Virus record (IMG/VR): IMGVR_UViG_3300044506_000040
DNA length: 57,570 nucleotides
Source of the DNA: an uncultured virus (IMG/VR IMGVR_UViG_3300044506_000040)
Taxonomy: Duplodnaviria > Heunggongvirae > Uroviricota > Caudoviricetes
Strand: one strand, 5' to 3'
Below, piece after piece: positions 4,238-37,778 of this stretch (its first letter is position 1; each line of letters opens with the position of its first letter). A program made the position numbers and the translations under genes. The notes beneath the pieces are model-generated. The model was not told the DNA's origin. It made no database searches and saw only the letters and a program-made list of their open reading frames with translations.

Positions 4238-4591
4238 ATGTCCGGTCCTACTCCCGTTACGACCCCGAGCGTCGATCAGCGCGTGCAATTCATGTCGGCT
4301 GACGCTCCCCTCGCTGCTGTCATCGTCAACATCTGGGGCGACGGCGCCGTGGACGTTGTGGTCGACGACGCTTCGCTGCCGAACGGCCCGCAGCTGTTCA
4401 AGCGCCAGACGTACGTGCCGTACGGTGCTACGTTCGTGCCCCCGGTCGACCCCGTCACCGGCAACACGCTCGACCCGCGCTACGTGGCGCAGCTGACGAC
4501 GGGCTCGGGCCTGCCGGCTGCTGGCCTGCAAAACACGACCCCGTCGATCGACGGTGTTGTCGTTCCCGGCACGGAACCCCTCGAAAGCTAA
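4238..4591 (+). CDS. hypothetical protein
   Basis: Strong codon bias; downstream hairpin terminator 4629-4664. Confidence 0.7.
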   Translation: MSGPTPVTTPSVDQRVQFMSADAPLAAVIVNIWGDGAVDVVVDDASLPNGPQLFKRQTYVPYGATFVPPVDPVTGNTLDPRYVAQLTTGSGLPAAGLQNTTPSIDGVVVPGTEPLES

Positions 4592-4746
4592 TCCGCTTTC
4601 TTTCCTGAAGACGATTTACCGCATTGGTGCCCCTGCTGAGTTGGTAGCTCGGCAGGGCTTTTTTGCCGTCAGGTTAAAAAAACACAGTTCAAGTATCTTC
4701 TGAACGGCACACTCAGCCCTTCCATCAATAACCGGAGAATAACGAA

Positions 4747-10526: not shown

Positions 10527-10604
10527 CCCGCGGTAGCTCAGTCTGGTAGAGCGGCCACCTCGAATGGTGGTGTGTCGTTGGTTCAAATCCAACCCAAGGG
10601 GCCA
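10527..10604 (+). tRNA. aberrant tRNA (8-nt anticodon loop CTCGAATG, two acceptor mismatches)
   Basis: Canonical D and T arms and CCA; identity unresolved. Confidence 0.65.
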
Positions 10605-29926: not shown

Positions 29927-29962
29927 CTAACCCAAGCATCGCATAGCCTCCAGAGGTGAGTC

Positions 29963-30190
29963 ATGGTAGACGCAGTCAATGCAGTTACTGGATTCGTACC
30001 CTTCTCGGAGCTTATGCGAGAAGCCCAAGAACGCGACAGACGTGAACGGCAAAGCAGGCCTTACAAGCCTAACGCTACGCCGGTCCCCACGCCTGTCGTG
30101 CCTTCGTCGATTGTTCAGATCTCCCAGCGTGCCCGGGACCTCTATGCGGCTGAGCAGACTGCTCGGCCGACTTGGGACTGGGACATGTGA
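29963..30190 (+). CDS. hypothetical protein
   Basis: GAGGTG RBS; terminator 30227-30252 follows. Confidence 0.65.
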   Translation: MVDAVNAVTGFVPFSELMREAQERDRRERQSRPYKPNATPVPTPVVPSSIVQISQRARDLYAAEQTARPTWDWDM

Positions 30191-30314
30191 ACGAATTGCT
30201 CCGAGTGCCGAACGCACTCTTTTATGGGGGACCTTCGGGTCCCTCTTTTTTTGCTGTCTTTTTTTCTTGTTGATTTCTATTGTGTGTTGTATAACCTTTT
30301 GGAGAACCAACAAC

Positions 30315-30749
30315 ATGTGGCAAAAGCTCTGGGCCCGCATTGGCCCGTATGTAACCCTGCAAGTCCTGGTGAAGTTCATTCAAGAAGAACTCTCGATGGT
30401 CTTCGCGTTCATCGCCAAAGTCTGTGGTGACATGTTCACCAGCTGGAACGGTGACGTCGACCCGGCGCGTCTGATCCCGTACCTGCTGTGCGGGTTGTTC
30501 GGTGTGTTCTTCCTGTGGTTCACCTACCTCGACACGATCTGGCATCACTCGTTTAACAGCATGGCGTTCAGTGCTGGGGCGGTGTCACTCGGTGCGCAGT
30601 TCGTGGCAGCTGCCGGCGGGGTGCGCCTGAAGCAAAGCTCGGAAATCCCGATGACGCCGGACGACCATCAACACCTCGGGGCGCGCAAGCCCAAGTCGCT
30701 GGTGCGGCGCGTGGTGCAAGGCGCGGTCAATGGGGCCATGGATAAGTAA
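30315..30749 (+). CDS. membrane protein (holin-like topology possible)
   Basis: GGAG RBS; two to three TM segments, basic C-terminus. Confidence 0.6.
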   Translation: MWQKLWARIGPYVTLQVLVKFIQEELSMVFAFIAKVCGDMFTSWNGDVDPARLIPYLLCGLFGVFFLWFTYLDTIWHHSFNSMAFSAGAVSLGAQFVAAAGGVRLKQSSEIPMTPDDHQHLGARKPKSLVRRVVQGAVNGAMDK

Positions 30750-30788
30750 AAACCGCACGACGGCTATTCTATGCGGGGAGAAATCCCT

Positions 30789-31327
30789 GGTAGTACCGTT
30801 GATACTGTCTGAAGAGGAGTGCAAGTCTCCAGTGCCTCTGATTGTGGTCTTTACCACGGTCGGGGAACGCTCAGGTGAAACGCCTGCGAAAGTGCGGCAC
30901 GAGATCCTTATCTCGGTGGTGGTTGTTGGTGTGATGGGCTTGACAACAGACTGTCGTGAGACAGCCTAGAGCCCACAGGGTGCCGTGGGGGTACCAGATA
31001 CACTGCTTCCTCTTTAGCTGTTCTCACAGTCTATGGTCTGATACCGATTAAAAGACCACGTGTGTTTGCCCACACGCAAAGGGTTTCTTGCTGGCCCGAC
31101 TGCCTATTCGGTACGCCCAGTGGATCTGGGAAGTTGTACTCTGGTTGAGCGTTGCTCCTAGAACGCAGCCTGCTGAGGATTATCCGTTCGGCGCATCAGT
31201 GTATCGGTGCGAGCGTCAACGCTAGTGTGCGTTTGGGTACAGTAGAAGTCTATTGAAACGGTCGTCTCCCCGGATGAGATAGATGAACGCTGTACCACGG
31301 CCGTCCTCAGTGGGCTGTGGCATTACC
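30789..31327 (+). ncRNA. candidate ~540-nt ornate structured ncRNA
   Basis: ORF-free; paired ends, 16-bp helix, 8- and 9-bp long-range pairings, GNRA/UUCG hairpins, 3' U-tract. Confidence 0.7.
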
Positions 31328-31355
31328 CCTTTTTTTATTTTGCTAGCTTAAACAA

Positions 31356-31940
31356 ATGACACAAGACCTGGCAGCATTGGTACAAGTCTACGACGATGTA
31401 CCGATCCCTCAGGCGCTGCGCGGGGAGTTGCAACGTCTGACGCAACAGCCCATTTGGGCTAACAACTGGACCACCAATAACTACGCGTATAAGAACTGGG
31501 GCGCGTTGTTTATGGGAGGCTCGGACGCTACTGACTTGGGGAACTGCGAAGCAGAACTCTACGCAGATCGGCGCACCTACCTCCTCGGTAAGTTCTGGGC
31601 GATCATCAAACAGAAGTACTTGCCCGAGCATGAACTCTTGCGCTTTTGGGCGCTGAGCTTCACGCAAGGCATGGATGGTCACGTCCACATCGATGGCAAA
31701 GAAGAGGATTACTACACGACGCTTCTCTATATCCACAATGAGTGGCAAGCTCATTGGGGCGGAGAGCTCATGTACTTCACGCAAGATGAGTCGGATATCA
31801 TCAAGGTGATTGAGCCTAAGCCACTTCGCGTCATCATCTCGCCCGGCCACATCCCTCACCGCATCAGCCCCCCAACACGAGAGACTGACAAGATGCGTGG
31901 TGTGCTCGGTTTTCGTTCGAGGAAAAGAAGAGAAACATGA
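31356..31940 (+). CDS. 2OG-Fe(II) oxygenase (prolyl-hydroxylase-like)
   Basis: HxD (HID), WGGE, distal H (IPH), R (MRG). Confidence 0.9.
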   Translation: MTQDLAALVQVYDDVPIPQALRGELQRLTQQPIWANNWTTNNYAYKNWGALFMGGSDATDLGNCEAELYADRRTYLLGKFWAIIKQKYLPEHELLRFWALSFTQGMDGHVHIDGKEEDYYTTLLYIHNEWQAHWGGELMYFTQDESDIIKVIEPKPLRVIISPGHIPHRISPPTRETDKMRGVLGFRSRKRRET

Positions 31941-32560
31941 AAGCAATGGGTAGTTTGATGGATGAGGTGCACGTCTATGACGACATCATCCCGAAAGACA
32001 TTCAGGCCCGCTTGGCAGAGACCGTCAAGAAGGAACTCTGGACCTATAGCTGGCAGACCGCGCCCTGGGACGAGTATCCCGTCTGGGGCCGCAGCGTGGC
32101 GAATCCGTTGCGCGGCAACCAAAACGCAGAAGAGAACCTCATGCGTGACGGTCACCAGATCGACTCGGCTGAAATCTGGAAGCTCTTTACGAGCACCTTC
32201 CTGAAAGGCCACAGTCTCATGCGCGCCTTCGTGATTGGGTTTCATCACGGCTGCGAAGGCTATGCGCACGGTGACAACACTGATCCTGAGGATCAGGGTA
32301 AGATGGGCAATGGCCTGAACCTGACGAACTATCGTTCGACGATTATCTTTGCCTTCGATGAGTGGCAAGCTCATTGGGGTGGCGAGATGGTCTTCTACGA
32401 TCGTGAGATGAATGACATCATCTGCGCGGTGGAACCGAAACCGTTCCGCGTGATCACGTTCCCGGGACTGCTGCCCCACAAGCCGAACGGGCCGACCCGT
32501 GAAGCTCCGCAATACCTTCCGCTGCTCTCGTTCCGCTCGAAGCAGATCCTCCGCATGTAA
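31937..32560 (+). CDS. 2OG-Fe(II) oxygenase paralog lacking the 2OG-binding Arg
   Basis: HGD, WGGE, LPH; Leu at the Arg position. Confidence 0.85.
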   Translation: MKAMGSLMDEVHVYDDIIPKDIQARLAETVKKELWTYSWQTAPWDEYPVWGRSVANPLRGNQNAEENLMRDGHQIDSAEIWKLFTSTFLKGHSLMRAFVIGFHHGCEGYAHGDNTDPEDQGKMGNGLNLTNYRSTIIFAFDEWQAHWGGEMVFYDREMNDIICAVEPKPFRVITFPGLLPHKPNGPTREAPQYLPLLSFRSKQILRM

Positions 32561-32570
32561 GAAGAGAACC

Positions 32571-33200
32571 ATGAACCAAGCAATTCAAACGAAGCACGCT
32601 GACCTCATCGCCCGCATTCAGATCCATGACGGACTGATCCCGGCTGAGCTCCAGAACGCCATCGCCGCGCTCATGAAGCAGCCGCGCTGGGCCTATGGCT
32701 GGAAGAGCAACGCCGAGAAGGACAAGTACAGCTTCTGGCACACGCACTTCGCCGGTGGCGACCTCAATAGCCGCGTGAACTGTGCGGATCAGCTGCGCCA
32801 AAAGCCGGAGAACTTCTCCGTGTATCAAGTGTGGGATCTGCTCAGCAAGACGATCCTGCAAGGCCACGAGCCGCTGCGCGCGTATGGCAACGCGCACACG
32901 TTCGGCACGGAAGGCTACATCCACGTCGACAACCGCGACACCGAGAACTACTTCTCGACGATCATCTACACGAACCCGGACTGGAAGGCGCCGTGGGGTG
33001 GTGAGACGCTGTTCTACTCGCTCGACGAGAAGGACATCATCAAGGCTGCCGCAGCGGTTCCGTTCCGCATCGTGACGTTCCCGGGGCACATCCCGCACAA
33101 GGCGAATGCGCCGGCGCGTGACTGCCCGCATCTGCGCACGGCACTCGTGTTCAAGTCGCACGTGGGTGCCAAGCCCGTCATGCCGACGGAAGCTGCGTGA
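32571..33200 (+). CDS. 2OG-Fe(II) oxygenase (prolyl-hydroxylase-like)
   Basis: RAYGNAHTFG..GYIHVD, WGGET, IPH, LRTALVFK. Confidence 0.92.
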   Translation: MNQAIQTKHADLIARIQIHDGLIPAELQNAIAALMKQPRWAYGWKSNAEKDKYSFWHTHFAGGDLNSRVNCADQLRQKPENFSVYQVWDLLSKTILQGHEPLRAYGNAHTFGTEGYIHVDNRDTENYFSTIIYTNPDWKAPWGGETLFYSLDEKDIIKAAAAVPFRIVTFPGHIPHKANAPARDCPHLRTALVFKSHVGAKPVMPTEAA

Positions 33201-33754
33201 TGGGGTTTCCCATCGCGGTAGTGGCGCACGACTACGATCCGTATGAGGACTGTCTCAAGCAGTTCCATACGGACACGACCAGTCATACGGGCCGGACTCT
33301 TTTCGAACACCTGAAGGGTACGCGAGACCTCCTGAAGAAGTGGGGGATGCCCGAGCACGTCCAGGTCGCGGGGTTGTTCCACTCGATCTATGGCACGAAC
33401 ATCTTCACGACGCCCAGTGCCTCGTTTACCGATCGGGATCTGCTCCAGGCCCTGATTGGCACGAAGGCGGAGTGGCTTGCGTATTTGTTCTGCGTGGCCA
33501 AGCGTCCGAAGGCGTTCTTCGATGCGTTCGAAGACAATAGCATCCACAATCGCTTTGGCTTTCATAGCCACATGGTGACCAATGTGGAAATCCATGAGCT
33601 GATCGCTATCGAAATCGCGAACCATATGGAGCAGGACATGGGTGCGGAGTTGGTAGCGAAGGTCTGGGATCGTTCGATGTACAACACGCTCCTGACGAAA
33701 ACTGCCATGGACGACATGCGTCGCTTCATGTACAAGCACGGTATCACGCGTTAA
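33197..33754 (+). CDS. DUF6817 family HD-like protein
   Basis: HTGRTLFEHLKGT..LL..WG......AGLFHSIYGT...IG..AE.LAYLFC. Confidence 0.8.
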   Translation: MMGFPIAVVAHDYDPYEDCLKQFHTDTTSHTGRTLFEHLKGTRDLLKKWGMPEHVQVAGLFHSIYGTNIFTTPSASFTDRDLLQALIGTKAEWLAYLFCVAKRPKAFFDAFEDNSIHNRFGFHSHMVTNVEIHELIAIEIANHMEQDMGAELVAKVWDRSMYNTLLTKTAMDDMRRFMYKHGITR

Positions 33755-33798
33755 ACGCCGGGGGAGCTTCGGCTCCCCGCTTATTCCGAGAACTAATA

Positions 33799-34296
33799 AT
33801 GGCTATTGAGAAATTGCTGTATCACGGCTCGGGGTTCGACCAGAACGAACTGATGCCGGGTTACCTGCGCAGCGGTGAGATCGTCAAATGGGACGAGACC
33901 GAATCGAACGAGTGGCTCTATACGACCTCCAGTCGGGATGAAGCCATTGCAATGGCATTCGCCTCGATGATCGAGAAGAAGTTCCAGTCGACCGAGTATG
34001 AGCGCCGGGGCAACCATATCCGGGTGCGCTTCCCGATGGAAGTGGCGCCGACGCTCGCCGAGCTCAAGCAACTCGAACTCTTCTTGTACACGATCCGCTT
34101 GGCGGAAGAAGACGGGTGGCAGAAGAACGCCAACGAGCACAACCAGATCAAGACTGAGTGGAAGACTCAGGCTACGATCGACAAGAACATCCTGAATAAG
34201 GAAAAGGTCGATCTCGTGAAGTGGCTCGCGAATAAGCAAGTCACGCTCCTCGGTGGGGGCAAGGGTGACACACCGCCCAACTACCTGATGTGGTAA
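33799..34296 (+). CDS. ADP-ribosyltransferase-like protein (Arr-like pattern)
   Basis: LYHGS....L.PG ... LYTTS....A ... EW; C-terminal PNYLMW. Confidence 0.55.
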   Translation: MAIEKLLYHGSGFDQNELMPGYLRSGEIVKWDETESNEWLYTTSSRDEAIAMAFASMIEKKFQSTEYERRGNHIRVRFPMEVAPTLAELKQLELFLYTIRLAEEDGWQKNANEHNQIKTEWKTQATIDKNILNKEKVDLVKWLANKQVTLLGGGKGDTPPNYLMW

Positions 34297-35534: not shown

Positions 35535-37778
35535 ATGTCTCTGATTTTCGGGCGTCAGGGTTTTCGGACTCTGGCGCAACTTGCGGACGCCGTGATCCAA
35601 CAGATCACACTGAACCAGACGGACTACAACACGCTGCATGCTCTGGTTCAGCAGGCGACCACAATCGCGCAGGCGAAGTATCCGAATGCGACACTGTTCT
35701 TTGTGACGTTCTCGGATGACCCCAACAATGATGAAAGTGGTTGGGTGCGACAAATCTGCGTGTGCTACAACACGGCGGCGGTGACGACGCATTGGGTGAC
35801 GGCCGTTGAGTTCCCGATGCGTGCGACCAATGGTGGCTACTACGCGGACCTGAGTACCGCGACGGTGATCACCAACGTCACGGGCTCCTCGATTGGCGAC
35901 ATCATTCCGACGGGCTCAGACGGCACGAGTGGCGATGGCACAGGTTCGAGTGATGGTGGCTCGTCCGATGGCGTCACGCCGCCTACGCCGGTGCTGGGCG
36001 TGCGACCTGCCTGGTTCCAAGGCTGGGGCTCGCCCAGTCAGTATGGTGAAGTCACCAAGATCGGCTCCACGATGTATTTCAACGTGGATGGCACAGCGCC
36101 TTGGGCGAATGCGGCCACCAATCCGATTCAGTATGCGGAGAATGGCTCGGGTGAGGCGGATCTGGAAATCGCCGTCATCAACTCCAGCACCCTGCAACTG
36201 GAAACGGAACAGCCGACCTCGTGGGCGATCACGGCGGTCAGCAGCAACATCACGATGGGCAACTCGTCTGTCTCAGCACCTGGTGGCAATGGCACGTCGG
36301 TCTATTCGGATCCCGAATGGTATCTGTCGTATCTGCCGCAAGATGGCGATAACCTCGTGATGGATGAAGTCACGACGCTGACGCTCACCGGCACGTATGG
36401 TGACAACTCGACGATTGTGGGCACGGTGACGCTGACGAAGGTTTCGGCCTTCAGCTATCCGACGACCAGCAATCCGGGTGTCGTAGGTGTGCGCCCCAGC
36501 TGGCAACAGAACTGGGCTGAAGGTGGTCCCGAGATGCTGCCGCTGCAACTCAACGGCACGATGTACGACACCGTCGACGGTACAGCCGGCTGGCAGCCCG
36601 CGAACAACGCCAAGGTGGCCTTCACAGGCGGCACCGCAGATTGCTATCTGGACTTGACGCTCATCAATCCGGCGAACAATCAACCGGAGAGCATCCAGCC
36701 AGTCCAGTGGAATGTGATGTCGGCCACCGTGGTGGATCCGAGTGGATCGAGCTTCACGAGCCCGAACAACCTGAGCGGGCAATCGGTGTATGCAGCCGCT
36801 GCTTGGCAGCTGCACGTCGATGGCGGCAATGTCTCTGATACGGTCTTCACGTTGACGGTGCAGGGTGTGTTTGCAGACAACACGCAGATCACCGCGTCGA
36901 TCAATCTGTACTACGTGCCGTACGCGCCGACCTACACGTATCAGTTCGCGCATGCGGGTCAAGCGTTGGAGATGGAAGTTCAGCCGCTGATCTACAACTT
37001 CAACGAGGCGACGGAGTTTGGCTGGTTGGGGGTGAACTTCATCCTCGAACAACCGAACTACACGAGCTCGACGAGCATCAATGGCGTCACGAACTACAGC
37101 GACGCGACGGGCTTCATGTCGATTGCTAACCAGGAAATGCCTGCGGGCACGACCCCGGGTGGTAATGAGAATGCACCAGGTTACAACTACCCGGGTGGTG
37201 TGGGTTCCAGTTCGCTCTCACCGGCTCTGGACTTCCTGCCGGCATTCAAGGCCTCGCTGCCGACGGCGGTGCCGATCAACACGGATAGCGACATCGACTC
37301 GCTGTGGACAAACGCCTTTGGTGCCAATGGTCCTGTGGCCGTGGGCACACAACTGGTGAACTACAGCGGCACCGAGACAACGGGCTTCAGCATCGGCAAC
37401 ACGGTGACAGCCCATGCGGCTGTTGATGGGGTCTTTGCTAGTGTGACGGACTTCATCAATACGGTCTCTGGCGCCTTTGCAAATGAAGACGCTATGTGGG
37501 GCAACTGCACGAGCGCCGCGAGCGCCTGTGGGGTCTATAGCGGCCCCAATCAGGTGATTCCGATGCCGCTGTGGGCAACGCAAACGTATTCTGGCTCTGG
37601 CTGGACAAGCGTGGCCAGTTATGGCAACGATACGGTTGCAGGTGTTGCTGGCTGGCAGCCGACTGAAGGTGGTCTGGCAGGTAACCCGGCTGGTTTTGTT
37701 GGTGCAATCATGACACCGATTACAGTTCTGATCGAGCGCGTTGCAGGTCCCGCACCGACACCGCAGTACCCTTCCTAA
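35535..37778 (+). CDS. putative virion surface/fibre protein with tandem beta-rich repeats
   Basis: S/T/G/N rich, very Lys-poor; GVRP(A/S)W...TMY..VDGTA.W repeat twice. Confidence 0.65.
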   Translation: MSLIFGRQGFRTLAQLADAVIQQITLNQTDYNTLHALVQQATTIAQAKYPNATLFFVTFSDDPNNDESGWVRQICVCYNTAAVTTHWVTAVEFPMRATNGGYYADLSTATVITNVTGSSIGDIIPTGSDGTSGDGTGSSDGGSSDGVTPPTPVLGVRPAWFQGWGSPSQYGEVTKIGSTMYFNVDGTAPWANAATNPIQYAENGSGEADLEIAVINSSTLQLETEQPTSWAITAVSSNITMGNSSVSAPGGNGTSVYSDPEWYLSYLPQDGDNLVMDEVTTLTLTGTYGDNSTIVGTVTLTKVSAFSYPTTSNPGVVGVRPSWQQNWAEGGPEMLPLQLNGTMYDTVDGTAGWQPANNAKVAFTGGTADCYLDLTLINPANNQPESIQPVQWNVMSATVVDPSGSSFTSPNNLSGQSVYAAAAWQLHVDGGNVSDTVFTLTVQGVFADNTQITASINLYYVPYAPTYTYQFAHAGQALEMEVQPLIYNFNEATEFGWLGVNFILEQPNYTSSTSINGVTNYSDATGFMSIANQEMPAGTTPGGNENAPGYNYPGGVGSSSLSPALDFLPAFKASLPTAVPINTDSDIDSLWTNAFGANGPVAVGTQLVNYSGTETTGFSIGNTVTAHAAVDGVFASVTDFINTVSGAFANEDAMWGNCTSAASACGVYSGPNQVIPMPLWATQTYSGSGWTSVASYGNDTVAGVAGWQPTEGGLAGNPAGFVGAIMTPITVLIERVAGPAPTPQYPS

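Follow-up and report, generated by a model that had tools for sequence, protein, structure and literature searches.

A candidate phage-borne SmaO/SmaX-type "hydroxylate, then cleave" gene block and the large structured RNA that adjoins it

Stepwise oxidation of aspartate within a peptide was recently described for a graspetide-type cluster for peptides that are ribosomally synthesized and then modified post-translationally (RiPPs), in which the 2-oxoglutarate (2OG) hydroxylase SmaO and the enzyme SmaX together convert Asp to beta-hydroxy-Asp and then to aminomalonate (Kim et al., J Am Chem Soc 2025; PMC12186529). An atypical HD-domain mono-iron oxygenase, SmaX gives only DUF6817 and HD_4 in HHpred. 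It cuts the Cbeta-Cgamma bond, leaving aminomalonate, lacks the Asp of the HD dyad and holds its one iron by H39, H63 and N143 (PMC12186529). The same report describes alanine variants of H31, H39, H63, T68, R104, N143 and Q147, each nearly or fully inactive, and fusions of SmaO with SmaX. The SmaA target is modified at DGDG, SmaO requires a Gly after the Asp, and the two enzymes act on peptides with no RNA involved; in nonribosomal peptide synthetase (NRPS) clusters, SmaX homologs may act on free or carrier-bound amino acids (PMC12186529). Here we analyze a block of four genes in the DNA of an uncultured Caudoviricetes virus (IMG/VR record IMGVR_UViG_3300044506_000040; the whole stretch of 57,570 nucleotides is called the window below), in which three 2OG/Fe(II) oxygenase paralogs are followed by a gene for a DUF6817 protein. 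We consider it somewhat probable that this block, at 31356-33754, is a phage-borne SmaO/SmaX "hydroxylate, then cleave" cascade, with a chemistry assigned by homology to SmaX.

The four genes lie on the plus strand with ends that overlap or nearly touch, and are closed by a hairpin:

31356-31940 (+): ox1, 194 aa, 2OG/Fe(II) oxygenase paralog, accessory member of the cassette
31937-32560 (+): ox2, 207 aa, 2OG/Fe(II) oxygenase paralog, accessory member of the cassette
32571-33200 (+): ox3, 209 aa from its ATG, conserved partner of the DUF6817 gene
33197/33200-33754 (+): DUF6817 gene, 185/184 aa, PF20680
33759-33787 (+): terminator-like hairpin (stem-loop 33759-33779), GC-rich, UUCG loop, CUUAUUCC tail, 3' of the DUF6817 stop

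The ox2 ATG overlaps the ox1 stop and the start of the DUF6817 gene overlaps the ox3 stop; the listed ox3 open reading frame (ORF) begins earlier, at GTG 32499. The original prediction, made from the letters of the window, had described a tight block of three HxD...H oxygenase paralogs and a DUF6817 protein in which HS replaces HD, and all of this was confirmed. It had also described the block as ended by a single terminator. The hairpin is indeed present (-18.9 kcal/mol, z = -1.8), but it is terminator-like and not a textbook terminator because its tail is just CUUAUU, a weak U-tract. The window is part of a jumbo phage and shares 99% identity with a 323,678-bp IMG/VR record (L001/G002, hereafter the twin), on which genome-wide searches for this phage were run. 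Its gene content includes seven tRNA genes, helicases and a NinI-like phosphatase. A sequencing-run search with the window found it in three soil-metagenome DNA runs, one of them possibly its source, and in no RNA run, and the INPHARED phage collection gave no blastn match to the region.

The DUF6817 protein matches PF20680 with 90.1 bits (cut-off 25.2; E = 1e-25). Its residues H30, H38, H62, T67, R103, N142 and Q146 correspond to SmaX H31, H39, H63, T68, R104, N143 and Q147, a correspondence drawn from a constant one-residue offset and from alignment to a homolog listed in the paper, not to SmaX itself. Five of these seven residues are invariant in an alignment of 19 family members and the other two nearly so; H38 and H62-S63 (the "HS") are found in all 19, and N142 in 15, with Asp in the remaining four. 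The pattern HHHSTRNQ is kept in 27 of the 28 viral relatives, the 28th being truncated. Among the bacterial relatives (here and below, the best 80 of 353 confirmed DUF6817 loci), the full seven-residue pattern is kept in 35, and Phe occupies the position of Q146 (SmaX Gln147) in 26 of the 80 proteins (loci L043-L122), a hint at a subfamily that acts on another substrate. An ORF at L096:3336-3893 shares 41% identity (E = 3e-29) with the window protein and lies on the Flavobacterium contig NZ_WMDQ01000025.1, which supplementary file 2 of PMC12186529 lists as carrying a SmaX homolog beside TauD. We confirmed the TauD neighbor on that contig. An AlphaFold2 model of the DUF6817 protein (pLDDT 94.2) has an HD fold, and all matches listed by Foldseek are HD-domain proteins, the best with a TM score of 0.60 and E ~1e-2. 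We therefore propose, by sequence comparison, that the protein is a SmaX-type HD-fold mono-iron oxygenase. A literature search for DUF6817 gave PMC12186529 as its sole match; the statement in the original prediction that no function had been described for this combination no longer holds, as a 2OG hydroxylase with a DUF6817-type HD-like enzyme is the SmaO/SmaX cascade.

The three oxygenases share 31-36% pairwise identity. All match PF13640 (ox1, E = 2.6e-7; ox2, E = 4.8e-4; ox3, E = 1.5e-4), with only ox1 passing the gathering score. H118-x-D120...H176 (ox3 numbering) and R183 are invariant in ox1, ox2, ox3 and 14 aligned relatives, the equivalent of R189 is kept in ox1 and ox3, and ox2 has a 12-residue insert following the HxD. 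The AlphaFold2 model of ox3 (pLDDT 89.5) finds PHD2 as its best Foldseek match (E = 8.5e-10, TM score 0.66), so that the modeled fold is that of a PHD2-type protein hydroxylase and is neither of PhyH nor of TauD type. We propose ox3 as a SmaO-like Asp beta-hydroxylase, and ox1 and ox2 are probably extra paralogous hydroxylases that would widen the range of sites or residues. All three oxygenases occur together only in the twin and in L002, a jumbo phage of 284,983 bp; the ox1 ortholog (41% identity) is found only there, and the ox2 proteins of the two phages are 71% identical. A third relative, L003, which is the same element as the Paraburkholderia sp. isolate contig L044, has ox3 alone, plus DUF6817.

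The pairing of ox3-like and DUF6817 genes extends well beyond these phages. Of the 29 viral DUF6817 loci, 28 have an ox3-like gene 0-0.9 kb upstream and on the same strand; the remaining one is a 4.6-kb contig. Twelve of the 80 bacterial loci have an ox3-like neighbor, and a further ten adjoin another 2OG oxygenase (2OG-FeII_Oxy_5, TauD or PhyH). On a Luteibacter sp. chromosome (L097:4389-5507, plus strand), ox3-like and DUF6817 sequences are fused in a single ORF. The fusion and the 28/29 pairing argue for a shared pathway of the two enzymes, and ox3 plus DUF6817 is the core unit, which moves, paired or fused, among phages and bacteria. A prediction of the ox3-DUF6817 complex scored 0.00 in a run without controls, and says nothing either way. 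A related arrangement is seen in cyanophage S-RIM50 (L227, KU594605.1, 28841-34059), where a DUF6817 gene of 137 aa follows four overlapping ORFs of ~150-200 aa, of which Pfam identifies one as 2OG-FeII_Oxy_5 and one, weakly, as 2OG-FeII_Oxy_3. A Gly_rich_2 domain protein follows on the other strand, and all these genes are annotated as hypothetical. The likeness to the window lies in the tandem ORFs of ~190-200 aa before the DUF6817 gene and in the adjacent glycine-rich-domain protein; the differences are that the DUF6817 protein is shorter and that tblastn of ox1-3 against the locus gave no match, so the ORFs are not detectably ox3-like and only Pfam identifies 2OG oxygenases there.

Gly-Asp-rich sequence beside the pair points to possible substrates. 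Phages of ~41 kb carry the pair in their morphogenesis region, where the portal gene precedes it and the virion structural proteins follow. The ORF ending just before the ox gene in small phages often has a C-terminal tail like ...GDVGDVGDVGDV...TGDGDTGDGDTGDGD... or ...GGDDGGDGGDGDGDGGDG..., and a Gly/Asp(Glu)-rich C-terminal tail precedes the pair in 17 of 24 evaluable small-phage loci. A density of at least 10 GD/DG per 30 aa is reached by only 8 of the 1,984 ORFs in the window and 29 viral loci, and all eight are the ORF just before the ox gene. Examples between the portal and oxygenase genes are:

L004:3658-5373 (+): Gly-Asp-tailed protein
L012:3550-5361 (+): Gly-Asp-tailed protein
L019:3840-5339 (+): Gly-Asp-tailed protein
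L011:3723-5174 (+): Gly-Asp-tailed protein
L014:140-850 (+): Gly-Asp-tailed protein

These small-phage proteins are 240-600 aa long, with tails such as (GDV)n, (TGDGD)n and (GGD)n, and the three tested fall in no PHROG family. By analogy, their tails resemble the DGDG target of SmaA and would fit the need of SmaO for a Gly after the Asp. Similar ORFs adjoin the pair in the bacterial loci L064 and L097 and the DUF6817 gene in L107. In L097, a 175-aa ORF with the Gly/Asp/Tyr-rich stretch GGGDGGYYGDGGGYYGDGGGDSGGDG lies ~0.8 kb upstream of the fusion; in L107, from a Terriglobia metagenome-assembled genome, a 99-aa ORF beside the DUF6817 gene (4428-4727, minus strand) contains CGDCGDGADCGDGGDGGDGGDGGDGDC and looks like a Cys/Gly/Asp-rich precursor peptide. 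The Paraburkholderia element, which carries only ox3 and DUF6817, encodes a tail-fiber-like protein (L135:425-2458, plus strand) with repeated NPH motifs and a (DG)n end, ...GDDGDDGDDGDGDGDGDGDGDGGDGG. For the phage of the window itself, the following is a weak lead:

35892-35981 (+): Asp-Gly-rich linker, GSSIGDIIPTGSDGTSGDGTGSSDGGSSDG, residues 120-149 of a 747-aa protein encoded at 35535-37778

The 747-aa protein lies 1.8 kb downstream of the cassette, and its linker has the top GD/DG density (6 per 30 aa) of the 1,569 frames of at least 80 aa in the twin genome.

As separate observations in the twin, at positions outside the window, a Gly/Ser/Asp-rich sequence, SDGTSGGGSGSDGTGSGG...GSDGTDP, is encoded at G002 175695-176723 (plus strand) and has the SDGT motif in common with the 747-aa linker, and a further Gly/Ser/Asp-rich stretch, GGGGMGDLGGGGGDSGGLGDLGG, is encoded at G002 183473-186700 (plus strand).

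In the proposed cascade, the Fe(II)/2OG enzyme ox3 would hydroxylate the beta-carbon of Asp within Gly-rich protein or peptide sequence; the DUF6817 protein, binding one iron via H38, H62 and N142, would then break the Cbeta-Cgamma bond of beta-hydroxy-Asp by oxidation, yielding aminomalonate, which may later lose CO2 to become Gly. The view of the four genes as a self-contained oxidative modification module, taken by the original prediction, is upheld, with proteins or peptides as the most likely targets. That phages use such a SmaO/SmaX-type pair to edit Asp where their own virion or morphogenesis proteins have Gly-Asp-rich tails or linkers is a more tentative idea, which we hold to be possible and short of probable. 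The products of such editing would be beta-hydroxy-Asp and aminomalonate, the latter metal-chelating, chemically labile and able to decay to Gly; an expansion of the module to three hydroxylases in jumbo phages would let it mark sites of several kinds.

The block is, in our reading, a phage variant of a recently described enzyme cascade, and neither an unknown combination nor an RNA-protein system. It shares with SmaO/SmaX a Fe(II)/2OG hydroxylase of ~200 aa that is paired, and sometimes fused, with a DUF6817-type HD-fold protein of ~185 aa without the HD Asp, the retention of all seven functionally tested SmaX residues in the window protein, and, in many relatives, Asp in Gly-rich sequence beside the genes. 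It differs in that the genes are in phages, of which PMC12186529 makes no mention, and in that no GG-leader precursor peptide, PCAT transporter (ATP-binding cassette type with a peptidase), ATP-grasp or other RiPP class enzyme is nearby. Moreover, in relatives the cascade would probably act on the C-terminal tails of proteins (240-600 aa) from the virion-morphogenesis module and not on small secreted peptides, and the phage of the window has three hydroxylase paralogs per SmaX-type enzyme. Searches of the literature on aminomalonate with phage returned nothing related in their titles and abstract openings, and phage enzymes were likewise absent from the titles and abstract openings returned for SmaX, HD domain and aminomalonic.

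Phages, cyanophages and jumbo phages above all, carry many 2OG/Fe(II) oxygenase genes without an assigned function. A link to the Asp-to-aminomalonate cascade gives these recurrent oxygenases a specific chemistry that is testable by mass spectrometry, and in many small phages it also points to a specific substrate, the Gly-Asp tail borne by the product of the gene immediately upstream. To our knowledge, the cascade has so far been characterized in a single bacterial RiPP cluster, and post-translational conversion of Asp to aminomalonate is not known in any virus. Aminomalonate has been seen in protein hydrolysates for decades, and we know of no protein source for it; phage virion proteins offer a new and tractable place to look. 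If true, the assignment would give a concrete job to some long-unexplained phage 2OG oxygenases, those of cyanophages included.

Several observations weigh against this assignment. The link between ox3 and SmaO was drawn because of their similar size, the ox3-like/DUF6817 fusion and the gene pairing, not from a direct comparison with SmaO, whose size of ~202 aa is itself deduced from similarity fractions in supplementary file 2 of PMC12186529. In ox2, Leu stands at the R189 position, so that one of the two conserved Arg residues is missing. A Gly/Asp-rich tail before the pair is absent from 7 of the 24 evaluable small-phage loci, and in 57 of the 80 bacterial loci no 2OG oxygenase gene adjoins DUF6817 and the neighbors are unrelated, which indicates that the DUF6817 family is not always used as a pair. 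The phage of the window also offers little by way of a substrate: a (GD)3 coding pattern (at most one mismatch) has no occurrence in the 323,678-bp twin, DGDG-coding matches there number 13 versus 7 for the control, and a six-frame scan of the twin genome found no Gly-Asp-tailed protein, just Gly/Ser/Asp linkers. The homologs of the 747-aa protein (in G003, G004 and G005) cover only residues 6-122 and are without the linker. Because the linker is absent from relatives, it is only a lead, the one available for a substrate in this phage.

Directly upstream of the cassette lies a region that the original prediction had singled out as a large noncoding RNA:

30760-31341 (+): structured RNA, ~580 nt, conserved, no Rfam family
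30800-30892 (+): 5' module of the RNA, with a hammerhead-like core
31165-31320 (+): RNA 3' domain with a long-range closing helix, 31165-31182 / 31303-31320

This candidate proved real. No credible ORF is found in 30750-31355, and the plus-strand fold is more stable than that of any of 100 shuffled sequences (z = -3.3; minus strand, z = -2.0). The sequence is conserved block by block across four jumbo-phage records, and RNAalifold predicts 121 pairs, 41 of them with compensatory changes; seven pairs of the helix that closes the 3' domain (alignment columns 547-564 / 710-727) show such changes. A T-run at 31330-31341 follows the 3' domain and ends 14 nt from the ox1 ATG. A T-run directly precedes the operon in the window and in L002 and is absent from L003. 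At the 5' edge, a TAT-N3-TATGCG block is conserved (30768-30778 in the window, and also in L002, L003 and L034), which from its sequence could be a phage-specific promoter or start site; TATG-type late promoters have been reported for phiKZ-like jumbo phages. Rfam 15 includes large noncoding RNAs such as GOLLD, ROOL, HEARO and OLE. A scan of the window with Rfam gave nothing at the gathering score except seven tRNAs, a scan of 30650-31450 at E<=10 gave one chance-level snoRNA match (E = 6.7), and scans of six related loci gave only tRNAs and chance-level matches. Being large, structured and outside the Rfam families, and having a 5' module that recurs before phage genes, the RNA merits a study of its own.

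The 5' module consists, in order, of CUGAAGA (30809-30815), the T-loop-type hairpin GGAG-UGCAAGU-CUCC (30816-30830), a variable hairpin and CAGGUGAAACGCCUG-CGAAA (30872-30891). Its general form is CUGANGA, a T-loop-type hairpin, an optional hairpin, the hairpin CAGG-UGAAAAG-CCUG, and CGAAA. The module also stands alone in other phage and metagenome contigs, where copies span ~65-140 nt; among them are:

L032:1488-1553 (-): stand-alone module
L033:1461-1539 (+): stand-alone module
L152:467-538 (-): stand-alone module
L168:1575-1662 (-): stand-alone module
L174:111-209 (-): stand-alone module
L194:394-530 (+): stand-alone module
L211:350-426 (-): stand-alone module

The two hairpins of the module show 97.5% of cells paired and 6 of 8 pairs changed on both sides, a level reached by none of 500 shuffles. 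The formal covariation test is limited to these two hairpins because MAFFT misaligned the variable part with stem III and stem I; the latter two stems were parsed with a script and by visual inspection. After correction of two rows by eye, the strands of 11 of the 13 stand-alone copies follow one another as in a type I hammerhead. In these 11, a stem III hairpin opens with A and closes with U (G/C in one), a single C, U or A comes next, and the strand that follows pairs with the 5 nt before CUGANGA. The module thus resembles a type I hammerhead in having the CUGANGA and CGAAA core strands in the right order, and differs from it in having the T-loop-type and CAGG-UGAAAAG-CCUG hairpins in place of a simple stem II. 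The arrangement of stem III, cleavage site and stem I was not found in the large RNA of the window, and the hammerhead models of Rfam match neither that RNA nor the related loci. Several stand-alone modules lie directly before start codons; the L032 copy has GGAGG as the 3' strand of its closing helix, at a distance of 9 nt from the ATG that follows. By its sequence, the stand-alone module may be an unrecognized hammerhead variant or a cis-regulatory motif. A literature search on T-loop hammerhead ribozymes in bacteriophages returned titles in which no such motif appears.

Is this RNA tied to the enzymes? The original prediction had suggested that RNA and cassette may form one functional system, with the RNA serving as a substrate, scaffold or trans-acting regulator of the oxygenases, and there is something to suggest it, since the RNA directly adjoins the cassette in three of the four RNA-bearing phages and lies on the same strand as ox1, 14 nt away. 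These three are syntenic relatives, however, and thus represent one evolutionary event; because they are related, shared descent can explain the adjacency. A co-occurrence check shows largely separate distributions. An nhmmer profile of the four RNAs finds the full-length RNA only in L001, L002, L003 (=L044) and L034/L203, and in none of 25 small-phage DUF6817 loci and none of 78 bacterial DUF6817 loci other than the Paraburkholderia copy of L003, so that the pair does without the RNA in 25/25 and 78/78 loci, respectively. Conversely, the RNA-bearing L034 phage is a complete genome of 278,988 bp with terminal repeats and has no DUF6817 gene by a search that was positive in the other three RNA-bearing phages. 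DUF6817 is likewise lacking from five further jumbo records that have only the 5' module, and ox, DUF6817 and p5 (the window's next gene after the cassette) are each absent from all 48 metagenome loci matching a 20-nt block of the RNA. SmaO and SmaX, too, modify peptides without an RNA (PMC12186529). A joint RNA-enzyme system is therefore very unlikely, and the claimed functional tie is not borne out. A cis-acting role is easier to entertain, that is, a riboswitch-like or ribozyme-processed 5' untranslated leader of whichever operon follows, the cassette here and p5 elsewhere. The absence of any promoter-like site in the 14 nt between the T-run and the ox1 ATG counts against a strict separation of RNA and cassette, and leaves room for a shared transcript and hence for cis-regulation; the T-run that immediately precedes the operon both in the window and in L002 and the position of stand-alone modules before start codons, as with the GGAGG of L032, speak for the same idea. 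Yet known leaders are far smaller than this 580-nt RNA with its closed 3' domain, in L034 the RNA and p5 are set apart by ~290 nt and a strong hairpin distinct from the RNA, L003 is without the T-run, and the window was found in no RNA sequencing run. We regard such a leader as unlikely, though less so than the joint system. The RNA appears, from these comparisons, to be a separate backbone element of a jumbo-phage lineage and not part of the enzyme system, and in the phage of the window it possibly shares, at most, a transcript with the cassette. In L034, the p5 homolog comes after the RNA as p5 comes after the cassette in the window; on the simplest reading, the cassette was inserted, or lost once, between these two backbone features, the RNA and p5.

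Two other accounts of the enzymes deserve comparison with the SmaO/SmaX-type cascade. In PhnY/PhnZ and TmpA/TmpB, hydroxylation next to an acid group is followed by four-electron oxidative cleavage by an HD-fold iron enzyme, and the pair studied here might act in this way on a small molecule, with C-P or C-C cleavage, as an auxiliary metabolic module. The logic of a 2OG oxygenase followed by an HD-domain oxygenase is the same, and the possible action of NRPS-cluster SmaX homologs on free or carrier-bound amino acids would suit it (PMC12186529), as would the lack of an obvious Gly-Asp-tailed protein in the phage of the window. Against it, PhnZ, TmpB and MIOX rely on a diiron center of mixed valence, and the ligand set of PhnZ and TmpB (4 His + 2 Asp) is absent from the window protein, which conserves only H30, H38 and H62 as His, has no HD Asp, and has only H38, H62 and N142 in place of that set. 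TmpB ranks only 44th (TM score 0.28) in the DUF6817 fold search, PhnY and TmpA belong to another hydroxylase fold family than the PHD2-type ox3 and have free phosphonates as substrates, and Gly-Asp-rich proteins adjoin the pair in many relatives. We judge this account improbable. Still less credit can be given to a reading in which the DUF6817 protein works like a small alarmone hydrolase (Mesh1/SAH/RelH) and reduces the (p)ppGpp of the host, with the oxygenases as unrelated prolyl hydroxylases acting on host translation factors. Mesh1, SAH and RelH are indeed the nearest structures to the DUF6817 model (TM scores 0.55-0.60, E ~1e-2), profile searches give weak matches to RelA/SpoT HD domains (E 0.05-0.5), and the ox3 model matches, at rank 45, the complex of the P. 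putida prolyl 4-hydroxylase (P4H) with EF-Tu, on which that enzyme acts. Nevertheless, 19/19 family members have Ser in place of the HD-dyad Asp that is a metal ligand in alarmone hydrolases, the conserved residues correspond to those of SmaX and not to those of alarmone hydrolases, and the fusion and 28/29 pairing argue for one pathway of the two enzymes.

Two further genes flank the RNA and the cassette:

30315-30749 (+): up1, 144 aa from ATG 30315, small membrane-type protein, upstream of the RNA and outside the cassette
33799-34296 (+): p5, 165 aa, phrog_13483 (function unknown), directly after the cassette

Homologs of p5 are found in L002, in L003 and, downstream of the RNA, in L034 (699-214), and p5 marks the insertion point of the cassette. 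Homologs of up1 (NWNGDxDPARL...GVRLKQ) lie upstream of the RNA in L002 (3140-3502) and L003 (4047-4487, plus strand); the C-terminus of the latter, GAGGDGDGDGSDGDG, has a DGDGDGSDGDG tail. Two consecutive terminator-like hairpins precede up1 at 30203-30255 (plus strand), the second of which, GGGGGACC-UUCG-GGUCCCUC, is followed by U7 (z = -3.6). As these hairpins fall inside the listed ORF 29979-30749, up1 probably begins at ATG 30315, and 29927-30314 would be largely noncoding.

Elsewhere in the window, one tRNA in the seven-gene array, at 10527-10604 (plus strand), is called by ARAGORN without an assigned identity and with an anticodon of four bases (cgaa) in an enlarged loop; its Rfam tRNA score is 44.2 bits, and either a tRNA of frameshift-suppressor type or a miscall could explain it.

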